Of a stretch of DNA of 64,000 nt, positions 15,172 through 26,446 are shown in pieces. The position numbers were made by a program, and so were the translations under genes. The notes under the pieces were generated by a model. That model made no database searches and was not told the DNA's origin. It saw nothing but the letters and a program-made list of their open reading frames with translations. The stretch comes from Chloroflexota bacterium (GTDB lineage Bacteria; Chloroflexota; UBA11872). The DNA lies in NCBI GenBank assembly GCA_965263075.1, contig CBDHGI010000006.1, positions 2,790,101-2,854,100 of the forward strand, in the 5' to 3' direction. Positions within the stretch are counted from its first letter, which is position 1. Each line of letters begins with the position of its first letter.

Positions 15172-16245
15172 ATGGTGCACATTCGACCTGAGATCGCCGC
15201 GCTGCACGGCTACACGCCCGGTCACCAGCCAAGCGGGTCCGGCTGGATCAAGCTCAACACGAATGAGAGTCCGGCGGTGGCCCCGGGCGTACTGGCGCGA
15301 CTGCGGGCGGCCGTAACGGACGACGTGCGGCTGTACCCGAATCCGACCAGCGAGGAACTTCGGGAGCGGCTGGCGGCGCGTCACGATGTTTCACCCGAGC
15401 AGGTCATCGTGGGCAACGGGTCGGACGACGTGCTCAACCTGATTGTGCGCGCGGTGTGCGGTCCCGGGGCGCGGGTGGTCGCGCCGAATCCAAGCTACTC
15501 GCTGTATCCGGTGCTGACCGAGATCCAGGGCGCGCGGATGGTTCACTGTCCACTGGGGCCAGGGTTCGAGTTGCCCGTGCGGCAGCTGGCCGCGGCGCGC
15601 GGCGCGGTGACCTTTGTGGCCAGTCCCAACAATCCGGCCGGGACGCACTACGGGGTCGACGAGTTGCGCTGGCTGGCCGAGCGCACGAACCTGCTGGTGA
15701 TCGATGAGGCCTACGTGGAGTTTGCGTCGAGCGACCGAATGGACCTGGCGCGCACGCTCCCGAACGTGTGCGTGACGAGGTCGTTTTCAAAGGCGTTCGG
15801 CCTGGCCGGACTGCGGCTGGGCTACGCGGTGGGCGATCCGGAGTTCATCGGCGTTCTGCATCGCGTGAAGGATTCGTACAATGTCAGCCGGCTTGCGCAG
15901 GTGGCCGGAGTGGCGGCCTGCGACGAAATCGCGTGGGCGGAGGCGCACTGGGAGGCAACTCGCGTCCGGCGGGACGCATTTGCGGAGGAGCTCCGCGAAC
16001 GCTTTGATCTCCAGGTTTATCCATCCGAAGCGAATTTTGTGTTCGTTGAGTGCGCACCGCACGATGCGGGTGCGCTTCAGCGTGACCTCGCCAACCGTCG
16101 AATTCTCGTTCGCCGTTTCCCGGAGGAGCCACGGCATGCCAACGCCCTGCGCGTCTCGATTGGATCGGACGCCGACATGGGCACGCTGTTGGAAGCGCTC
16201 GGGGAGATTCTGGCGACAGGCCCGGTTCTCGCCGGCGAAGGTTGA
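15172..16245 (+). CDS. hisC: Histidinol-phosphate aminotransferase
   Basis: 357 aa, class II aminotransferase. The N-terminal L..Y.PG..P and the PLP-lysine region (SFSKAFGLAGLRLGY) match HisC. Confidence 0.85.
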   Translation: MVHIRPEIAALHGYTPGHQPSGSGWIKLNTNESPAVAPGVLARLRAAVTDDVRLYPNPTSEELRERLAARHDVSPEQVIVGNGSDDVLNLIVRAVCGPGARVVAPNPSYSLYPVLTEIQGARMVHCPLGPGFELPVRQLAAARGAVTFVASPNNPAGTHYGVDELRWLAERTNLLVIDEAYVEFASSDRMDLARTLPNVCVTRSFSKAFGLAGLRLGYAVGDPEFIGVLHRVKDSYNVSRLAQVAGVAACDEIAWAEAHWEATRVRRDAFAEELRERFDLQVYPSEANFVFVECAPHDAGALQRDLANRRILVRRFPEEPRHANALRVSIGSDADMGTLLEALGEILATGPVLAGEG

Positions 16246-16324
16246 GCTGATGTATCAGTCGTTCTTTGTCGCGTCACCATGCACCCAGCCATCGCGACGC
16301 ATGGTCCACAGGAAGGATTCGTAG

Positions 16325-18505
16325 TTGGAAGGTCTGGTCTGGCTTGTGCCCGCGGCGATCATCATTTCGGTGATCGTCGTCATTTATCTCGCGCGCGATG
16401 TTCTAACGCAGCCGGTTGATCGGTCGGCGGATTCTTCGCAACTCATCCCGGCCATGCAGCAGCTGGACGCTGAGCAAAGCTCGGAGTTGTATGGGCGGAT
16501 GTCGCTGAATGGCGACCGCATCTATGACGGAGCGACGGCGTTTCTGCAGCGGCAGTACCGCACGATCGCCTGGATGGCGATCGTGGCTGCCGGAGTCCTG
16601 GCGCTGCTGTTGCTGTTCTTCGGCGAGAACGCGGAGAAGGGCATCGAGGCCGGCGATATCGCCTGGCGCACTGGTGTCTCATTCCTGGTTGGCGCCGTGC
16701 TATCCGGCCTTTCCGGCGTGATTGGAATGATCATTGCCGTGCGGTCGAACGTGCGCACGGCCAGCGCCGCGACACGCTCGCTGGGTGACGCACTGACGAT
16801 TGCGCTGCGCGGCGGCGCCGTCTCCGGAATCCTGATCGTGGGGCTCAGCCTGCTGGGCGTCTTCGCGCTGTTCTGGGGGTTTGGCGGGTTTGAGAATCCG
16901 CAGCGTGCGCCCGAACTGATTGTCGGATTCGGGTTCGGCGCCAGCTTCGTGGCGCTTTTCGCGCAGTTGGGCGGCGGCATCTTTACAAAGGCCGCCGACG
17001 TCGGCGCCGACCTCGTAGGCAAACTGGAAGCGGGCCTGCCCGAAGACGATCCACGCAATCCGGCGGTGATCGCCGACCTAGTGGGCGACAACGTGGGCGA
17101 CTGCGCCGGTCGTGGGGCCGACCTCTTTGAATCCACGGCCGCCGAAAGCATCGGGGCCATGATCCTGGGTGTGGCCGTCTTCAAGGCGACGGGCGGAGAC
17201 AACATCGCCTGGATTCTGTTCCCGCTGGTGGTGCGGTCGTTCGGGGCGCTCGCTTCGATCGTGGGACTGCTGGTGATCCGGCCGGACCGCGTGCGCAACG
17301 CGCAACGGGCGCTGGACGTGGGCTACTGGACGACGGCCGCGCTGGCCGCGGTCGGAATGGCTATTTCCGCGATCGTGATGCTGGGGTCATGGTGGTTCTT
17401 CCTGGCCGGATCCATCGGCATCCTCACCAGCGTGGCGTTCGTGTACATCACGCAGTACTACACAGCGTTCAACCGTCCGGTCCGCGAGATTGCCGAGGCG
17501 TCCCGCACCGGGCCGGCCACCAACATCATCGCCGGGCTGGCCGTGGGGTTCGAAAACACGGCGATGCCGATCATCGTCATTTCCGTGGCGCTCTGGTCGT
17601 CGTTCCAGGTGGGCATTCTGGCCTTCGCCGATCTGGGAGTCGAGATTGGCGACTTTCAGGCCGGAGTATTCGGGACAGCCGTCGCCACCATGGGCATGCT
17701 GATGAGCGCCGCCTACATCCTGGCCATGGACACCTTTGGGCCAATCGCCGACAACGCAGGCGGGATCACGGAAATGGCCGAGGCGCCCGAGGACGTGCGC
17801 GACGTGACCGACGGCCTGGACGCCGTGGGCAACACGACCAAAGCGCTGACCAAGGGCTATGCCATCGGGTCGGCGGCGCTGGCGGCCTTCCTGCTGTTTA
17901 GCGCCTATCTGGAAACCGCGGGCCTTGAAGAGGTTGACCTCTCCAAGGTTGAGGTCTTCATTGGCGCCCTGCTGGGCGGCATGCTTGTCTTCCTGTTCAG
18001 TTCGCTGGCGATCCGTGCGGTTGGACGTGCTGCCCAGGCGATGATCCAGGAGGTACGGCGGCAGTGGCGGGAAGAGCCGGGAATCCTTGCGGGCACGGTC
18101 GAGCCGAACTACAGCCAAGCGGTGGATATCAGCACACGCTCGGCGCTGCGGGAAATGATCGCGCCCGGTTTGCTGGCCGTGTTGATGCCGATCGTGGTCG
18201 GTCTGGTGCTGCGCGCCGAGGCCGAGGCGGCGCTGCTGATGGTTGGAACCATCGTCGGCGTGCTGCTGGCGACGGTCATGAACAACGGCGGCGGCGCCTG
18301 GGACAACGCCAAGAAGTTCATTGAGGCGGGTCACTTACGCGACGCGGACGGCAAGTCGATCGGCAAGGGCACGGACGAGCACGCCGCATCGGTCGTGGGC
18401 GACACCGTGGGTGACCCATTCAAGGACACCGCGGGTCCGTCGCTGCACGTGCTGGTCAAGCTCCTGAGCACGATCACCCTGGTGCTCGCGCCGGTGTTCA
18501 TCTAG
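16325..18505 (+). CDS. hppA: Membrane-bound proton-translocating pyrophosphatase (H+-PPase)
   Basis: 726 aa, about 16 transmembrane segments. Signature GGIFTKAADVGADLVGK...DNVGDCAGRGADLFES. Confidence 0.95.
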   Translation: MEGLVWLVPAAIIISVIVVIYLARDVLTQPVDRSADSSQLIPAMQQLDAEQSSELYGRMSLNGDRIYDGATAFLQRQYRTIAWMAIVAAGVLALLLLFFGENAEKGIEAGDIAWRTGVSFLVGAVLSGLSGVIGMIIAVRSNVRTASAATRSLGDALTIALRGGAVSGILIVGLSLLGVFALFWGFGGFENPQRAPELIVGFGFGASFVALFAQLGGGIFTKAADVGADLVGKLEAGLPEDDPRNPAVIADLVGDNVGDCAGRGADLFESTAAESIGAMILGVAVFKATGGDNIAWILFPLVVRSFGALASIVGLLVIRPDRVRNAQRALDVGYWTTAALAAVGMAISAIVMLGSWWFFLAGSIGILTSVAFVYITQYYTAFNRPVREIAEASRTGPATNIIAGLAVGFENTAMPIIVISVALWSSFQVGILAFADLGVEIGDFQAGVFGTAVATMGMLMSAAYILAMDTFGPIADNAGGITEMAEAPEDVRDVTDGLDAVGNTTKALTKGYAIGSAALAAFLLFSAYLETAGLEEVDLSKVEVFIGALLGGMLVFLFSSLAIRAVGRAAQAMIQEVRRQWREEPGILAGTVEPNYSQAVDISTRSALREMIAPGLLAVLMPIVVGLVLRAEAEAALLMVGTIVGVLLATVMNNGGGAWDNAKKFIEAGHLRDADGKSIGKGTDEHAASVVGDTVGDPFKDTAGPSLHVLVKLLSTITLVLAPVFI

Positions 18506-18567
18506 GCACGTTGCCCTTGGGCCGCCCGCAGGGGGCCGCTCCGGCGCCGAGCCGGGGCGGCTGACTC

Positions 18568-19377
18568 ATGTGGGTCGAGGTGGTCCTGCTGGCGGCGGTG
18601 CAGGCGCTGACCGAGTTCCTACCGGTCAGCAGTTCGGGGCATCTGTTGCTGGTTCCGGCGCTGGCGGGCTGGACCGACCCTTTCCTGACAGGGCTGACGC
18701 TTTCAGTCGCGCTGCACCTGGGGACGGGGCTGGCGCTGGTGATCGCGCTCTGGTCCGACTGGGTGTGGCTGGCGCGCGGGGCGCTGGGCATCGGTCCCTC
18801 GGCGCCGCTGGCCCGCCGGCTGCTGCTGGCTCTGGTGGGATCGACGCTGCTGATCGGCGCGATCGCGGTGCCGCTGCGCGGCTGGCTGACGACGTTGCGC
18901 GACCCGATGCTGACGGCCGTATTGCTGATCGTCTTTGGCGTCGTGCTGGCGGCGGCGGACCGATATGGCGCAAGCCGGCGTGATCTGACGACCACGCCGC
19001 TGCTGATTTGGGTCGCGGTCGGCCTGGCGCAGATCGCGGCGCTGGTTCCCGGCGTTTCACGAGCCGGAATCACGATGACGGTGGCGCGGGGTCTGGGCGT
19101 GGAGCGTGCGGCCGCGGCCAGATTCTCGCTCTTCCTGTTGGCGCCGGCGGTCGCGGGCGCGGGTCTGGTGCAATTCGTCGACGTGGCGGCCAGCGGCAAG
19201 CCGCCAGGCGACATCCCGCTGTTGATCGGGGCAACCCTGGTCGCGGCGGTGGTGGGCGTGGCGGCAGTGCGCTGGCTGCTGGGATTCGTCGAACGCCGAA
19301 GTCTGGCGGCGTTCGCGGTCTACCGGGTGGGCGCGGGAGCGCTGGCGCTGATCCTGCTACTCACCCTGAACGGCTAA
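18568..19377 (+). CDS. uppP: Undecaprenyl-diphosphatase
   Basis: 269 aa. BacA/UppP motifs LTEFLPVSSSGH and ...PGVSRAG. Confidence 0.9.
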   Translation: MWVEVVLLAAVQALTEFLPVSSSGHLLLVPALAGWTDPFLTGLTLSVALHLGTGLALVIALWSDWVWLARGALGIGPSAPLARRLLLALVGSTLLIGAIAVPLRGWLTTLRDPMLTAVLLIVFGVVLAAADRYGASRRDLTTTPLLIWVAVGLAQIAALVPGVSRAGITMTVARGLGVERAAAARFSLFLLAPAVAGAGLVQFVDVAASGKPPGDIPLLIGATLVAAVVGVAAVRWLLGFVERRSLAAFAVYRVGAGALALILLLTLNG

Positions 19378-19431
19378 AAAAAGCGGCGGCGCAGCCGCCG
19401 ATCGTCCATATAATCGCTTCTCCCAGGCGAG

Positions 19432-20469
19432 GTGCGTATGCGCATAGGGATACTCAACGCCACCGGCTACGCCGGCGGCGAACTGGTTCGATATCTGGCC
19501 GGCCACCCGGAATTCGAGATATCCGGCGTTACCGCGCGCAGTCTGGCCGGACGCCGTCTGCACGAGGTGTTTCCGTGGCTGCGCGCCAGCGGCCGAGCCG
19601 CGTACGCCGATCTGGAACTGACAGCCGAGTTGAACGGCAGCGCCGATCTGGTGATCTCCTGCCTGCCGCACAAGGCTTCGGCAGCGCAGCTGGCGCCGTT
19701 CCTGGACGACGGGGTCCGCTGTATCGACGTCAGCTCCGATTTCCGGTTACGGGACCCGGCGGACTACATGCACTGGCACGGCGTGGAGCACGCGGCGCCC
19801 GAGTGGATCGAGTCGGCCGTTTATGGGTTGACGGAGTGGCATCGCGACCAGATTCGCGAGACCGACCTGGTGGCTAACCCGGGCTGCCACGCCATCACGG
19901 CGGCGCTGGCGCTGGCGCCGGCGGCGCGGGCCGACCTGCTGGCCGGTCACGTGATGGTGGACTCGAAGACGGGAGTCTCTGGGGCGGGGCGCTCGGCGTC
20001 ACCCGCGTATGGGTTTTCCGAGATCAACGAGGACGCCGCGGCCTATGGCGTGGCTAAGCACTACCAAAGCCCCGAAATTGCGCAGGAGTTGAGCGGCCTG
20101 GGGGACTCGCAAATCGAGGTGACGTTTGTGCCGCACCTGGTCCCCATGACGCGCGGCATCCTGATTACGGCCTACGGGGCGCTGCGCGAGGATGTTGCGC
20201 CGACACAGGTCGAGCAGGCCTACCGCGACGCCTATGAGGACGAGCCGTTTGTGCACCTCGCCGGGGAACCACCGCACACGAAGTGGACGTCCGGCGGCAA
20301 CCACGCTTTTGTTCACTGGACCGTCGATGAAGCCACCCAAACGCTGGTTGCCATGGCGGCTATCGACAACCTGGGGAAGGGCGCGGCCGGTAGCGCGGTC
20401 CAGAACGCGAACGTGATGGTCGGGATCGACGAGCATGTCGGTCTGGCGATTCCGCCGAGTCACCCCTAG
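19432..20469 (+). CDS. argC: N-acetyl-gamma-glutamyl-phosphate reductase
   Basis: 345 aa. NAD(P)-binding N-terminus (GILNATGYAGGEL) and an active-site Cys region (ANPGCHAIT). Confidence 0.95.
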   Translation: MRMRIGILNATGYAGGELVRYLAGHPEFEISGVTARSLAGRRLHEVFPWLRASGRAAYADLELTAELNGSADLVISCLPHKASAAQLAPFLDDGVRCIDVSSDFRLRDPADYMHWHGVEHAAPEWIESAVYGLTEWHRDQIRETDLVANPGCHAITAALALAPAARADLLAGHVMVDSKTGVSGAGRSASPAYGFSEINEDAAAYGVAKHYQSPEIAQELSGLGDSQIEVTFVPHLVPMTRGILITAYGALREDVAPTQVEQAYRDAYEDEPFVHLAGEPPHTKWTSGGNHAFVHWTVDEATQTLVAMAAIDNLGKGAAGSAVQNANVMVGIDEHVGLAIPPSHP

Positions 20470-20471
20470 AT

Positions 20472-21662
20472 GAGACCTTTGAATAATGCGCCCTGAGCAG
20501 CGCCGAGGGGCGGCCGCCGGGCCGCGACGGGGTCGCGAGGGGTGGGGTAGCTCGGGTCGCCACCCGCCGAGGGCTACCCACAGCCCACCGCGCCGAGGTG
20601 AGGGCGCAGTGCGCCTAGGGCGAGGCGGGCGCGCCGGCCAGCAAGCGGTCCGCGCGGCGCAGGTTGTAGGCCAGCAGCTTGAACCACATCTCGGTCGTAT
20701 TGCGGGCCAGGCCCCGGTAGCGCACCCGCTGGTAGCCGTACGAGCGTTTCAACGTGCCAAACACGTGCTCCACCGGCCGCCGCACCTGTTCGATCCGGGC
20801 GTGGCGGCGGCGCGCCGTCGGGCCCAGCCGGGGATGATGTTTGTTGGGCCGCCGCATCAGCCGATCCGCGATCCCCAGCGCCCGCAGCCGGGTGCTGCGC
20901 GCGTGCGTGCCATAGGCCGCATCCCCATACACCGCCCCCTCGTCCCCCGCGATCAGCCCGTCCGCCACCTCGGTCTCGTTCACGTTCGCCGGCGTCAGCA
21001 TCGCGCGCCGGATCAGTTCCGAGTCGGCGTCCACGCCCAGGTGCAGCTTGTAGCCGAAGCGGGCGTGCGGGCCCCGGCGGGCCCAGGCCGCGTCCGGGTC
21101 CCTGGGGCTGCCCGCGCCTGCGCCGCCTCCCCGCGGGCGGCGCACCTGCGCGGCCACCAACGTCGCGTCCACCAGCGTGCCCTGCTTGACCAGCATCCCC
21201 CGCGCGGCCAGTTGCTGCTCCACCGCCGCGAACCGCGGCTCGGCCACGCCCGCCGCCGTCAGCCGCGTGCGGAACCGGCTGATCGTCGAGTGATCCGGCG
21301 CGTCGTCTTGCAGCCCCAACCCCACGAAGCGCCGGAACGACAGCCGCTCCCACAACGCCTCTTCCATCGCAGGGTCCGAGGCCTGGTACCACTGCTGGAG
21401 CAGCAGCACTTTCACCATCAGCAGCGGCGGATAACTCGGCCGCCCGACCGGCGCGGCGTGCAGACCCGCCACCAGCGCCTCCAGCGGCGCCCAGTCGATG
21501 AGTTGCGTCAGCCGCTCCAGCCGGCGTTGCGGCCAACCCGCGGCGGCAGCCAGGCGTCGATGAGTTCCGGCGAATGGGTGGAACGGTGCATGGCCACGAC
21601 CCTCGGCGGCGGGGGAGATGGTCTTCACCATGCGCCTCACGCCAGGGTTTTGCAAAGGTCTC
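20472..21662 (-). mobile_element. IS5-family insertion sequence (about 1.19 kb) inserted at the argC/argJ junction
   Basis: Perfect 10-bp terminal inverted repeats GAGACCTTTG (20472..20481) and CAAAGGTCTC (21653..21662). Flanking direct repeat CTAGAT (20466..20471 and 21663..21668; CTAG is the core). One DDE transposase ORF inside. The element separates the argC stop (TAG 20467..20469) from the argJ start ATG 21667. Confidence 0.85.
20615..21631 (-). CDS. IS5-family DDE transposase
   Basis: Probable start MVKTISPAAEG (ATG at 21631). N-terminal 'transposase InsH' domain (LLMVKVLLLQQWYQASD) and DDE_Tnp_1 C-terminal region (...FGTLKRSYGYQRVRYRGLARN). Confidence 0.85.
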   Translation of the reverse strand: MVKTISPAAEGRGHAPFHPFAGTHRRLAAAAGWPQRRLERLTQLIDWAPLEALVAGLHAAPVGRPSYPPLLMVKVLLLQQWYQASDPAMEEALWERLSFRRFVGLGLQDDAPDHSTISRFRTRLTAAGVAEPRFAAVEQQLAARGMLVKQGTLVDATLVAAQVRRPRGGGAGAGSPRDPDAAWARRGPHARFGYKLHLGVDADSELIRRAMLTPANVNETEVADGLIAGDEGAVYGDAAYGTHARSTRLRALGIADRLMRRPNKHHPRLGPTARRRHARIEQVRRPVEHVFGTLKRSYGYQRVRYRGLARNTTEMWFKLLAYNLRRADRLLAGAPASP

Positions 21663-21666
21663 CTAG

Positions 21667-22896
21667 ATGCACGAGCCACCGGCTGAGCTTGAGGACTTTC
21701 GGGTTGTACCCGGCGGGACGCTGGCGCCCCGCGGGTTTATCGGCGGAGGCGTAGCCGCGGGGATCAAGACCCCGGGCGTGTTGGACCTGGGCGCGATTCT
21801 CAGCACGCACACACCCTGTCGATCGGCCGCGACGTTTACCACCAATCGGGTGCGCGGCACTTCGGTGGGCATCAACCAGGAGCGCCTGGGCAAGAAGCCG
21901 GCCCGCGGCATCGTATTCAACAGCGGAAACGCGAACACGTACACAGGTGCCGGCGGGCGTGCCGACGCGCTGGAATTCACTGACGCCTTCGCCGGCCGTT
22001 TCGGCGTGCCGGCGGATGAGGTCCTGGTGGCGTCCACCGGCGTGATCGGGTTTCGCCTGCCGATGCCCAAGGTGCTGGCGGGCGTGGAGTCGTTGGAGCT
22101 CACGGCAGAGGCCGGCGCGGACGTCGCGGCCGCCATGCTGACTACCGATGTCGCGCCGAAGACGCTGGCTATTGAGGTGCCCGTTTCGAGCGGAACGATC
22201 CGAATCGGCGGGGCGGCCAAGGGTGCGGGCATGGTGCACCCGAACATGGCGACGATGTTCGTGTTCATGACGACCGACGCCGAACTGGAGGGCGGGACTC
22301 TCCAGCGCCTGCTGAGCGCGGCCGTTGCCGACTCCTTCAATCTGATCAGCATTGACGGCGACCAGTCCACGAGCGACACGGCGCTACTGCTGGCCAATAG
22401 TGCCAGCGAGACGGGTCTGCTCCAGGAGGGGACGGCCGACGCGACGGCCTTTACGCGTGGCCTGCGCGCTGTGTGCCGGTGGCTGTCCCGGGAGATCGTG
22501 CGCGGGGGCGAAGGCGTGACCAAGGTCTTTGCCGTGACCGTGCGAGAGGCGTCCGACGAAGCCACGGCTCGTCAGGCGGCGCGAGCGATCACGACATCTT
22601 CGCTGGTGAAGACGGCGGTGCACGGCGGCGACCCGAACTGGGGCCGGATCGTGATGGCCCTGGGCAACAGCGGAGCAGTCTTCGACCCTGACGTACTCGA
22701 TATCTGGATCGGGGGCACGCAGGTTGTGCGCCAGGGCGCGCCGGCGGTTTACGACGAGCCAACCGTTGCCGAGCACCTGCGTCATCCGGACGTGACGATC
22801 GAGGTGGCGCTGAACCAGGGCGAGGCCAGCGCGACGGCCTGGGGCGGGGACCTTTCGGCCGAGTACGTGGCGATCAACGCGGAGTACATGACCTGA
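21667..22896 (+). CDS. argJ: Bifunctional glutamate N-acetyltransferase / amino-acid acetyltransferase
   Basis: 409 aa. Autoproteolytic ATM(L/F) threonine site (GMVHPNMATMFVFMTTDA). Confidence 0.95.
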   Translation: MHEPPAELEDFRVVPGGTLAPRGFIGGGVAAGIKTPGVLDLGAILSTHTPCRSAATFTTNRVRGTSVGINQERLGKKPARGIVFNSGNANTYTGAGGRADALEFTDAFAGRFGVPADEVLVASTGVIGFRLPMPKVLAGVESLELTAEAGADVAAAMLTTDVAPKTLAIEVPVSSGTIRIGGAAKGAGMVHPNMATMFVFMTTDAELEGGTLQRLLSAAVADSFNLISIDGDQSTSDTALLLANSASETGLLQEGTADATAFTRGLRAVCRWLSREIVRGGEGVTKVFAVTVREASDEATARQAARAITTSSLVKTAVHGGDPNWGRIVMALGNSGAVFDPDVLDIWIGGTQVVRQGAPAVYDEPTVAEHLRHPDVTIEVALNQGEASATAWGGDLSAEYVAINAEYMT

Positions 22897-22955
22897 GCGA
22901 GGCGAACCCAGCGTCAGGCGAAGCCACGGCCGCGCCGAACCTGTCGGGCCGCTAC

Positions 22956-23723
22956 GTGGTGGTGAAGATTGGCGGGACGGCCGACATGGCCGCCGGACGA
23001 ATTGGGGCCGACGTGTGCGCGCTGGTCGAGGACGGCGCCCGCGTGGTGATTGCCCACGGTGGCGGCGACGAACTGACGGCCTGGCAGCGCGCACGGAATC
23101 GTCAGACGACGTGGCACAACGGCCTGCGCGTGACCGACGACCAGACGCGCGACGACGCCGTGCTGGTATTCCGAGGACTGGTGGCGCCGGCCGTCGTGGG
23201 AGCACTGCAGCAGGCTGGAGTTTCGGCGGTGGGCATTAGTGGGCCGGATGGCGGTGTTGTGCGTGTCCGCCGTGCGTCGCCGGATCTGGGTTGGGTAGGA
23301 CGAGTGCATACGGTGAACACGCGTCTGCTGGACGACCTGACCAGGGCGGGGCACGTGCCGATCGTTTCGCCGCTGGGCGTCGATGGGCGTGGGTCGCTGT
23401 ACAACGTGAACGGTGACGACATCGCGGGGGCGCTGGCTCAGGCGACACAGGCCGCGGCCCTGGTGTTCCTGACTGACGTGGACGGCGTGCGGGACGCTGA
23501 CGGCGCGGTGCTGGCGCATCTGGACCCGGACAGCGCTCGGGGCTTGATCGGAAGCGGAGTAATCGCGGGCGGGATGGTTCCCAAGGTTCGGGCCGCGGTG
23601 GCGCTGCTGGGCAACGTGGACACGGTCTGCATCGCCAGCGGCACGCGGCGGCATGCGCTACGGCGCGCCCTGGATCCGGCCGGCGGAGGTACGCAGGTCA
23701 GGGGCGAAGCCACCTCCCTATAA
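22956..23723 (+). CDS. argB: Acetylglutamate kinase
   Basis: GTG start (VVKIGG). AAK family motifs VIAHGGG and ...FLTDVDGV. Confidence 0.88.
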   Translation: MVVKIGGTADMAAGRIGADVCALVEDGARVVIAHGGGDELTAWQRARNRQTTWHNGLRVTDDQTRDDAVLVFRGLVAPAVVGALQQAGVSAVGISGPDGGVVRVRRASPDLGWVGRVHTVNTRLLDDLTRAGHVPIVSPLGVDGRGSLYNVNGDDIAGALAQATQAAALVFLTDVDGVRDADGAVLAHLDPDSARGLIGSGVIAGGMVPKVRAAVALLGNVDTVCIASGTRRHALRRALDPAGGGTQVRGEATSL

Positions 23724-23775
23724 TCCTGGTTGGAACGGTGACTGCCGTTCGACCCCTCCCGAGGCTGATCCACGC

Positions 23776-24954
23776 ATGGGCTGGCAGGAGCTAGAGGCGC
23801 GCTACTACCACCAGGCGTTCCGTCGCTTTCCCGTAACGGTGGTGCGCGGCGAGGGTTCGCGCCTGTGGGACGACGAGGGTAATTCGTACCTGGACTTCAC
23901 CGCGGGCATTGCCGTCACCACGTTGGGGCACGGCGATCCTGAACTATGCGAGGCCGTGGCGGACCAGGTGCGCACCCTGGCGCATATCTCAAACCTCTTC
24001 TACACGACGCCGCAGATCGAGGTCGCGCAGCGCCTGGTGGACAACTCGGCGCTGGATCGGGTCTTTTTCGTCAACAGCGGCGCCGAGGCCAGCGAGACCT
24101 GCCTGAAGATCGCCCGAAAATGGGGACGGACGCAGCGCAACGGCGCGTACGAGGTCATTACCGCCGAACACGGGTTTCACGGCCGCACGATTGCCACGAC
24201 GGCGGCTACCGGTACGCCGGCCTACCAGGAACCGTTTGCACCCATGCCGGCCGGGTTTACGCACGTCCCGCTGAACGACCTGGACGCGATGGACGACTCG
24301 ATCTCGCCAACAACCGCCGCCGTGATGGTGGAACTGGTCCAGGGCGAAAGCGGCGTGCGCATGGCGGACCCGGACTACGTTCGCGGTCTGCGGCGCGTTT
24401 GCGACGAGCACGGCGTGCTGCTGATCTTTGACGAAGTCCAAACGGGTATCGGGCGCACCGGCCGCCTCTTTGGCTACGAGAACTTTGGCGTCACGCCGGA
24501 CCTGATAGGGCTGGCGAAGGGCCTGGGCGGTGGGCTGCCGATCGGGGCGGTGCTGAGCAGCGAGGCCGTGAGTGTGCTGGCGCCGGGCGAGCACGGGTCC
24601 ACATTTGGCGGCAGTCCGGTGGCGTGCGCCGCGGCCCGCGTGGTGCTGGACCGCGTCATGGCCCCTGGGTTTCTGGACGACGTTCAGGCGAAGGGCGAGC
24701 ACGTGCGGACGCGTCTGCGGGACAGCGCTGCGCAGGGCGCCCGCATCACCGACGTGCGGGGGCTGGGGCTGATGATCGGGTTCGATCTCGAGTCCGAGGA
24801 CGCGGCGACGGCGGTCGTGGAGAACGCGCGAGGTCACGGGCTGCTGATCATCAAGGCCGGACCGGCCACGATCCGCATCGTGCCGCCGCTGACAATCAGC
24901 CTGGACGAACTGGACGAAGGCCTGGATGCGCTCGAGGCCGCGCGGGGCGTTTGA
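23776..24954 (+). CDS. argD: Acetylornithine aminotransferase
   Basis: Start MGWQELEARYY (ATG 23776). Class III aminotransferase with the PLP lysine region (LIFDEVQTGIGRTG). Confidence 0.9.
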   Translation: MGWQELEARYYHQAFRRFPVTVVRGEGSRLWDDEGNSYLDFTAGIAVTTLGHGDPELCEAVADQVRTLAHISNLFYTTPQIEVAQRLVDNSALDRVFFVNSGAEASETCLKIARKWGRTQRNGAYEVITAEHGFHGRTIATTAATGTPAYQEPFAPMPAGFTHVPLNDLDAMDDSISPTTAAVMVELVQGESGVRMADPDYVRGLRRVCDEHGVLLIFDEVQTGIGRTGRLFGYENFGVTPDLIGLAKGLGGGLPIGAVLSSEAVSVLAPGEHGSTFGGSPVACAAARVVLDRVMAPGFLDDVQAKGEHVRTRLRDSAAQGARITDVRGLGLMIGFDLESEDAATAVVENARGHGLLIIKAGPATIRIVPPLTISLDELDEGLDALEAARGV

Positions 24955-24994: not shown

Positions 24995-26446
24995 ATGTGG
25001 GGTGGACGGTTCGACAAACCGCCGGCGGAAAGCGCCCGCTCTTTTACGCGCTCGTACCCCGTCGACCGTCGGATGTACCGCGAGGACATTGTGGCCAGCC
25101 GCGCGCACGCCGCGATGCTGGGCCGCCAGCAGATCATTCCGGCCAGCAGCACCGATGCTCTGACGGCGACGCTCGATGCGCTGCTGGTCGAGCTCCAGAC
25201 AGCGGGCGGCCCCCCGCCGGACGCGGACGATGAGGATGTGCACAGCTACGTTGAACGGGAGCTGATCGCGCGTATCGGCGACGATGGCCGCCGGCTGCAC
25301 GTGGCGCGCAGTCGCAACGACCAGGTCGCCACGGATTTCCGTCTCTACTGCAAGGGCTTTAGCTTGCGCCTTGTGACGGCAGTTCTGGACCTGCTGGGCG
25401 TTCTGGTGCACCGGGCCGGAGAGGAAGCTGAGACCATCGCGCCGGGGTTCACCCACCTCCAGGTCGCGCAACCGGTCACGCTGGGGCACTACTTCCTGGC
25501 GCTGTTTGAGATGCACAGGCGCGACGTCGAAGGAATCTTGCACGCGTACACCGTGGCGGACGTGTGTCCACTGGGCGCCGGGGCGCTGGCCGGCGTGGCA
25601 TTCGACGTGGATCGTGAGTACGTGGCCGCGGAACTCTGTTTCAGTCAGGTCGCGCGCAACAGTCTGGACGCCGTGTCGGACCGGGACTTTGTGAGCGCCG
25701 TGCTGCATGCCTGCCTGACGCTGAACGGGCATCTATCGCGGTGGGCGGAAGACCTGGTGGTCTGGGCGTCGCCCGGTTTCGGAATGGTGCGATTCGACGA
25801 CGCATTCGCGACCGGCAGCAGCATGCTGCCCCAGAAGCTGAACCCGGACGTGGCGGAACTGACGCGCGCGAAGGCTGGGGCGGTTGCGGGCGCGGCCTTC
25901 GGCTGGCACGCGACGCTGAAAGGGGTGCCCCTGAGCTACGCGCTGGACATGCAGGAGGACAAGCGCGCGGTCTTCAGGGTCGAGGACGACGTGCTTGGGG
26001 CGCTGGGGGCGCTGACCGGCGCGCTGCGCACCTTGACCGTGAACCGCGAGCGTATGGCGGCCATCGCACGTCTGGGGCATCCGGCGGCAATTGAAATCGC
26101 CGACTACCTGACGGAACGCGGGCTGCCGTTTCGCGACGCCCATGCGGCCGCGGGGCGACTGGTGCGGCTGGCCGACTCCAAAGGTGTGGAGCTGGCTGAC
26201 CTGGATGACGCGGACTTTGCGTCAGCCAGTGAGCGGCTACCGGGCGACGTGCGGGGCCGGCTGAACCTCGAGGAGGTCGTCGCGCGCCGTACGTCACTCG
26301 GGGGAACGGCGCCGGCGCGAGTGCTCGAGGAGGTGGGGCGCGCGCACCGCTGGCTGCGGTGGCAGCGTGAGCACGTGCAGGACCTGGTTGCCCGGGGGCT
26401 TCCAGCAGCCTTGCAGCCGGAGCGTAGTCCTCCGGCGGATCACTGA
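24995..26446 (+). CDS. argH: Argininosuccinate lyase
   Basis: 483 aa. MWGGRF... N-terminus and fumarate lyase signature (GSSMLPQKLNPD). Confidence 0.95.
   Translation: MWGGRFDKPPAESARSFTRSYPVDRRMYREDIVASRAHAAMLGRQQIIPASSTDALTATLDALLVELQTAGGPPPDADDEDVHSYVERELIARIGDDGRRLHVARSRNDQVATDFRLYCKGFSLRLVTAVLDLLGVLVHRAGEEAETIAPGFTHLQVAQPVTLGHYFLALFEMHRRDVEGILHAYTVADVCPLGAGALAGVAFDVDREYVAAELCFSQVARNSLDAVSDRDFVSAVLHACLTLNGHLSRWAEDLVVWASPGFGMVRFDDAFATGSSMLPQKLNPDVAELTRAKAGAVAGAAFGWHATLKGVPLSYALDMQEDKRAVFRVEDDVLGALGALTGALRTLTVNRERMAAIARLGHPAAIEIADYLTERGLPFRDAHAAAGRLVRLADSKGVELADLDDADFASASERLPGDVRGRLNLEEVVARRTSLGGTAPARVLEEVGRAHRWLRWQREHVQDLVARGLPAALQPERSPPADH

Follow-up and report, generated by a model that had tools for sequence, protein, structure and literature searches.

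An IS5-family insertion between argC and argJ in a single strain of an uncultured Chloroflexota species, with predicted polarity on argJ–argB

The argC–argJ junction and the element within it

We examined a 64,000-nucleotide stretch of the genome of an uncultured Chloroflexota bacterium (assembly GCA_965263075.1, contig CBDHGI010000006.1, positions 2,790,101 to 2,854,100), in which an insertion sequence (IS) separates the arginine biosynthesis genes argC and argJ. The whole 64-kb stretch is referred to here as the window, and coordinates are window positions unless another locus is named. The argC stop codon (TAG, 20467-20469) and the argJ start codon (ATG, 21667-21669) lie on the plus strand, and direct reading of the sequence places the element exactly between them, as an earlier note on this DNA had proposed. 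The element spans 20472-21662, is present once in the window, and has a GC content of 72.9%, compared with 66.5% for the window. Its minus strand carries its sole meaningful open reading frame (ORF), a transposase gene encoded antisense to the arg genes. The element is 1191 bp long, as given in the earlier note, and six other copies begin and stop at the same bases.

The ends of the element are inverted repeats that are perfect across 10 bp. The left repeat, GAGACCTTTG (20472-20481, plus strand), marks the end distal to the transposase start; the right repeat, CAAAGGTCTC (21653-21662, plus strand), marks the transposase-proximal end and is the exact reverse complement of the left. These ends agree at 12 of the 14 outermost positions, and they are the only exact occurrences of GAGACCTTTG in the 64 kb. 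Flush with both ends lie copies of CTAGAT, the target-site duplication. The left copy (20466-20471) holds the argC stop codon, and the right copy (21663-21668) gives an in-frame TAG (21664-21666) together with the AT of the argJ ATG. With the element in parentheses, the junction thus reads ...GAGTCACCC-CTAGAT-(GAGACCTTTG ... CAAAGGTCTC)-CTAGAT-GCACGAG.... Neither coding sequence is altered: the argC stop is retained in the left repeat, and TAG-ATG is restored by the right one. Inverted and direct repeats alike had been described in the earlier note, and a direct reading finds both in place.

A repeat search returns the duplication as an 8-bp direct repeat, CCTAGATG (20465-20472 and 21662-21669, spacing 1197), because, by coincidence, the terminal base of each inverted repeat prolongs CTAGAT. 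Partitions of this repeat that would leave a 2-, 4- or 8-bp duplication were ruled out, as the sister copies fix the termini at GAGACC...GGTCTC. A 6-bp duplication with a 10-bp inverted repeat is the partition supported by the other copies. No RNA family was found with Rfam across 19000-23500 at E ≤ 1, and folding the operon-strand RNA of the two IS ends gave unremarkable z-scores of -0.83 and -0.95.

We compared the junction with that of related genomes. A scan for ArgJ, using one genome per species, gave 17 close Chloroflexota loci, in 16 of which the junction could be read (L007 starts too near argJ to show argC). The two genes abut in 14 of these 16 loci, 11 of them with TAG followed by ATG and three with an overlapping TAATG, and L012 has a spacer instead. 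The junction of L013, CACCCCTAGATGCACGAGCC, equals the window minus the element and one repeat. Among ArgC cluster members, one that is 99.1% identical to the window protein is encoded on contig L087, which matches the window at 99-100% identity over 15300-20400 (~5 kb upstream). L087 lacks the element. With a slash at the junction, it reads ...CACCCCTAG/ATGCAC... (in longer form, GAGTCACCCCTAG/ATGCACGAGCC and ...GAGTCACCCCTAG/ATGCACGAGCCACCGGCTGAGC...), which again equals the window minus the element and one repeat, with a single CTAGAT. Uninterrupted, abutting argC-argJ is also found on L088, a 1.87-Mb contig with a 98% identical allele, and on two similar contigs.

The ...CCC-TAG-ATG-CAC... 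junction predicted from the window by removing the element and one repeat is therefore a real empty site, identical in L087 and L013. Uninterrupted argC-argJ had likewise been anticipated for relatives, and it was recovered in the 14 abutting loci, L087, and L088. In all relatives examined, the 1.2 kb is missing at this site, which argues against conserved, non-mobile DNA. Searches of JGI metagenome contigs with the IS/argJ junction and with the IS end gave 0 matches each. Exact-match searches with the window ArgJ, ArgC (from two starts), and transposase proteins gave no match in a collection that does not include the source genome. Because argC and argJ abut in 14 of the 16 readable relatives, in L087, and in L088, we take the insertion to be strain-specific and recent, and the near-identity of the window copy to its family consensus agrees with a recent event. 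The coincidence of ends and duplication is not chance, because six independent copies share the exact ends and a near-identical strain has the precise empty site.

Gene order around the junction (H+-pyrophosphatase, uppP, argC, argJ, argB, argD, argH) is conserved across relatives, of which two loci end early at contig ends and one, L016, has an extra ORF. That ORF (L016, 7287-8138) encodes 283 amino acids of unknown family and lies between argJ and argB; in other lineages, insertions between genes of the operon are tolerated. The spacer in L012 (5773-6003), a more distant relative with 73% ArgJ identity, consists of 225 bp of non-coding DNA with TGAATG on both sides, one being the old stop/start and the other a new stop-like/start sequence. 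A separate insertion at this junction may have left it behind as a scar.

Transposase, sister copies, and target sites

The transposase carries two Pfam domains, DUF772 (PF05598, the InsH-type N-terminal transposase domain; 88.8 bits) and DDE_Tnp_1 (PF01609; 93.5 bits, model positions 4-200 of 200). NCBIfam model NF033581 (transpos_IS5_4, "IS5 family transposase") matched with 282.9 bits against a cut-off of 140, and the NCBIfam models for IS1182, IS982, IS4, and ISNCY all scored under their own cut-offs. Approximately 3000 homologues were found in a large protein collection, and those with names are called IS5 family. Among 72,556 plasmids searched, the best IS5-family transposase match reached 46% identity, to Rhizobium genes annotated as "IS5 family transposase." Membership of the IS5 family, as first claimed for the element, is secure, and nothing was found that contradicts the identification. 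The element does not show the 4-bp YTAR duplication that characterizes the IS5 subgroup, and it is assigned here at the family level. It is a new, unnamed member of the IS5 family, and the type of insertion is ordinary and well understood.

Six further copies (L081-L086) were recovered through their transposases. These are full length, 92-99.4% identical to the window element, and located in six unrelated gene neighborhoods. All copies start with GAGACCTTTGAATAATGCGCC and finish with TTTTGCAAAGGTCTC. Inspection of the ends of the six sister copies identified target duplications in L082 (TGACA), L083 (TAGGT), and L086 (CTTGGA), and none in L081, L084, and L085. The target duplication of this IS lineage is thus 5-6 bp and not 4 bp; YTAR is contained in only two of the four duplications when the window is included.

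The transposase gene of the window copy appears to be damaged. Its longest ORF (20615-21631, minus strand) encodes 338 amino acids from an ATG at 21631 and includes both domains and a non-homologous N-terminus. In protein alignments, homologues of 323-325 amino acids align only from residue 37 of this ORF, because this copy has a private 1-bp deletion and the upstream ATG at 21631 lies in the new frame. The deletion lies at 21522-21525, where a consensus CCC has become CC on the transposase (minus) strand (column 139 of the seven-copy DNA alignment). It frameshifts the canonical transposase, which would start at ATG 21591 (MHRSTHSPELIDAWLPPRVGRNA...) and comprise 325 amino acids, after approximately codon 23. 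A single 325-amino-acid ORF is present in five of the six sister copies, and L081 has its own, different 1-bp deletion nearby. In the seven-copy alignment, what separates the window copy from its family consensus is, in essence, a single deletion and a single substitution. With its frameshift, the window copy may no longer move on its own, and with its intact ends, it could be mobilized by sister copies.

Several sister copies share features of their target sites. Those in L082 (2858-4049), L084, L086, and L081 (all read as reverse-complemented loci) lie in or beside palindromes of the form CCCTCTCCC...GGGAGAGGG, which resemble repetitive extragenic palindromic (REP) sequences; this REP-like palindrome is not present in the window. 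A C[T/A][C/G]CCC motif stands directly 5' of the duplication in six of the seven copies, including that of the window (CACCC/CTAGAT). Based on a sample of seven sites, the lineage may prefer palindromic repeats between genes as targets rather than YTAR. Within the window, CTAG is strongly under-represented, at 43 sites, where base composition predicts ~196 and a trinucleotide model ~83. In several cases the site coincides with the TAG stop codon of a gene (e.g., 18502, 20466, 28977), and the placement of the element is neat in that CTAG, rare in this genome, coincides here with a stop/start junction. In L081 (1765-2703), a metagenome contig, the sister IS is without a target duplication and adjoins an IS110-family transposase gene (DEDD_Tnp_IS110/Transposase_20), in a neighborhood that resembles an IS-rich, rearranged region.

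Promoter layout and predicted effect on argJ–argB

All five arg genes are encoded on the plus strand. The argC gene (N-acetyl-gamma-glutamyl-phosphate reductase, 19432-20469) is intact, matching TIGR01850 with 363 bits (cut-off 233.6) and containing Pfam Semialdhyde_dh domains; in relatives, the gene is called from the ATG at 19438. The argJ gene (bifunctional ornithine acetyltransferase/N-acetylglutamate synthase, 21667-22896) is intact, with a 409-amino-acid product that matches NF003802 with 436 bits (cut-off 351) and aligns full length to relatives from residue 1. Downstream are argB (acetylglutamate kinase, 22956-23723; intact; TIGR00761, 182.7 bits, cut-off 151.3), argD (acetylornithine aminotransferase, 23776-24954; TIGR00707, 471 bits, cut-off 410), and argH (argininosuccinate lyase, 24995-26446; intact; TIGR00838, 469.7 bits, cut-off 279.5). 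The mechanically called argD ORF comprises 433 amino acids from 23653 and overlaps argB by 70 nt. It is probably over-extended, and we revised the start to the ATG at 23776 (MGWQELEARYY), because conservation begins there and relatives are called as 392 amino acids. With substitutions in argJ, argB, argD, and argH polarized by outgroups, the window branch counts N27/S47 and the sister branch N23/S51 (non-synonymous/synonymous); these counts give no non-synonymous excess on the window branch and hence no sign of decay in the four genes.

The arg region contains short patches of much higher divergence, at 19570-21966, 22197-22796, and 23097-23466, with 84-89% identity to L011 where the background is ~97% and 86-95% identity to L087 where the background is 99-100%. 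This pattern fits mosaic homologous recombination within argC, argJ, and argB.

The motif TATAAT occurs three times in the 64 kb, counting both strands, and two of its occurrences precede arg genes. The first box (CCATATAATCGC, 19409-19414, plus strand) lies 18 nt 5' of the argC start as a putative -10 of an argC promoter and is unchanged in 14 related loci that differ in the surrounding spacer. The second (CCTATAATCC, 23719-23724, plus strand) overlaps the argB stop codon 51 nt 5' of the likely argD start and is a putative promoter element for argD-argH, kept in 15 related loci, distant ones included. Both boxes are conserved in all related Chloroflexota loci, even in relatives at only ~63% protein identity, and a conserved hairpin, GGAACGGYGACNGCCGTTCG, lies 3' of the second. 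The boxes are likely -10 elements, and their positions suggest two transcription units, argC-argJ-argB and argD-argH. The earlier note had the insertion separate argC from all four downstream genes. The 1.2-kb gap after argC stands, but argD-argH probably keep their own TATAAT promoter; because argD has this conserved box, the element probably cuts only argJ-argB off from their promoter. In the interval from uppP to argC, both plus-strand genes, lies a terminator-like GC hairpin with a subsequent T-run in minus-strand orientation (19384-19400). No minus-strand gene lies upstream of it, and in plus-strand reading the A-run comes first and the hairpin second.

At the native argC/argJ junction, no Shine-Dalgarno sequence is obvious, and the junction depends on abutting stop and start codons. 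As the earlier note had observed, the right end of the IS now supplies an AAGG (21655-21658, within the right inverted repeat) 8 nt before the argJ ATG. On its operon strand, the element has more C than G, with a GC skew down to -0.19, whereas the arg genes have more G than C. Rho prefers C-rich, G-poor RNA. An operon-sense frame is free of stop codons over 20486-21754 (422 codons), beginning 17 nt after the argC stop and running over the argJ start in a different frame. We do not take it for a gene, as it has no Pfam match and is the mirror of the transposase gene, open in all seven copies; the frame is open because the transposase gene has a GC3 of 0.91 and is without TTA, CTA, and TCA codons. 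In the frame of argJ, an ATG-started stretch of 30 codons (21574-21663) ends at the TAG (21664) directly before the argJ ATG.

We consider it highly probable that an IS5-family element transposed recently into CTAGAT at this TAG/ATG junction, in one strain of an uncultured Chloroflexota species, with inferred polarity on argJ-argB. The element, 1191 bp with a minus-strand DDE transposase, entered the hexamer spanning the argC stop and the argJ start, which was duplicated. As the sequence shows, the staggered cut fell across the junction, so that the argC stop stays in the left copy, TAG-ATG is rebuilt in the right, and neither protein is altered. Two consequences would follow from this placement: termination-reinitiation coupling between argC and argJ would be abolished, and the argC promoter box would be parted from argJ-argB by 1.2 kb of DNA that is C-rich and antisense to the transposase. 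Transcriptional polarity would then probably lower argJ and argB expression, and argD-argH, probably served by their own TATAAT box, would be little affected.

Two other origins of the 1.2 kb were weighed against transposition at this site. Import of the element together with its flanks, through homologous recombination with a divergent lineage, would suit the drop in identity to L011, the closest species-representative genome, from ~97% to 84-89% in the ~1.2 kb flanking the element, a patch in which the window, L011, and L001 are equidistant. L087, however, shares the window allele across this patch (97-99% identity) without the element, so the divergent patch is older than, and independent of, the insertion. 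Import was rejected on this ground and is very improbable. The segment could also be conserved non-mobile DNA or a repeat-induced chimera that arose in assembly, given that the related records are metagenome assemblies, that IS copies are classic sources of misjoins, and that three of the six other copies are without a target duplication. We find this scarcely credible: the 6-bp duplication is flush on both sides and the collinear flanks match the empty site base for base, which a misjoin would not give, and the sequence is missing from this site in all relatives examined.

As to expression, we consider a reduction for argJ-argB slightly more probable than not. Several points weigh against it or against related parts of the interpretation. 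No intrinsic terminator-like site was found on the operon strand inside the element, and the 422-codon frame, if translated, would shield the RNA from Rho. The AAGG from the IS end, weakly Shine-Dalgarno-like, means that some argJ expression may persist, and the four downstream arg genes are all intact. The promoter roles of the TATAAT boxes are drawn from their conservation, and the polarity step from the sequence. The deletion in the transposase gene falls within a short homopolymer and might be an error of assembly. Read-through with residual translation is the main rival to polarity. In that case, the insertion would be effectively neutral: transcripts from the argC promoter would cross the element, argJ would be translated from the rebuilt ATG, either through the IS-borne AAGG or by re-initiation after the short IS frame that ends at the TAG, and arginine synthesis would be kept. 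Beyond the lack of a terminator-like site, the stop-free frame, and the AAGG, this outcome draws on downstream genes that are intact and without relaxed selection. The long open frame, however, is a trivial mirror of transposase codon bias and is out of frame at the argJ start; RNA across the element would be C-rich and G-poor; intact downstream genes are equally expected of a very recent insertion; and the insertion is absent from all other strains examined, so it has not spread. We regard neutrality as a real possibility, although the less probable outcome. An outward promoter in the transposase-proximal end, raised in the earlier note as a source of argJ expression, fared worse. Outward and hybrid promoters are known in several IS families, and a -35-like hexamer, TTGCAA, lies at 21650-21655. 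Yet a consensus promoter scan of 19300-22000 on both strands gave no promoter-like site, a relaxed search for TTGnnn-16/18-TAnnnT along the element's operon strand had no match, and the TATAAT-type box of the native arg promoters is not in the element. The ATG moreover lies only 5 nt past the IS end, so with TTGCAA as part of a hybrid promoter, transcription would begin 3' of the start codon. That such a promoter now drives argJ-argB is distinctly unlikely. Also unlikely is a more elaborate idea, that the 422-codon frame and the short frame running to the TAG before argJ are anti-polarity features and that, together with a preference for CTAG or palindromes at gene ends, they adapt the element to insert without silencing operons. 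Were this true, ribosomes would cover the read-through RNA and re-initiate at argJ.

Significance and comparison with known systems

The locus matters chiefly for annotation, as a strain-specific mobile-element insertion in the arginine operon of an uncultured Chloroflexota lineage in which this IS is present in many copies. For an unnamed IS5-family element, it defines the ends, the duplication made at the target, and a consensus transposase, and the TATAAT boxes provide two candidate promoters for a phylum with poorly described promoters. Current understanding of insertion sequences is left unchanged. At this locus, L087 without the IS and the genome that carries it are a naturally occurring near-isogenic pair, in an organism that is not genetically manipulable.

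Insertion of IS5 is known to turn operons off or on. The element described here resembles IS5 of Escherichia coli in its family models (PF05598 with DDE_Tnp_1, and NF033581), in having a single transposase gene, a length of ~1.2 kb, and short inverted repeats at its ends, and in a window target that contains CTAG, a YTAR tetranucleotide. IS5 duplicates a 4-bp YTAR target (PMC5009759), and CTAG is cited as an IS5 target tetranucleotide (PMC10379815). In contrast to E. coli IS5, this element duplicates 6 bp and its sister copies 5-6 bp, the inverted-repeat sequence differs, and the host is an uncultured Chloroflexota bacterium.

The arrangement also bears comparison with two other kinds of insertion. 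Classical polar IS insertions are those of IS1 and IS2 in the gal and lac operons. As in those cases, the IS stands between a promoter and distal genes whose coding sequences are intact, and Rho-dependent polarity would be expected; here, in contrast, the insertion lies exactly at a stop/start junction, no gene is truncated, and the polarity is predicted from sequence. IS1397 and ISKpn1 are REP-targeting insertion sequences of the IS3 family. Several sister copies of the present element similarly lie in the loop of CCCTCTCCC...GGGAGAGGG palindromes, but this element belongs to the IS5 family, and its target in the window is only a half-match (CACCC/CTAGAT/GCACG).

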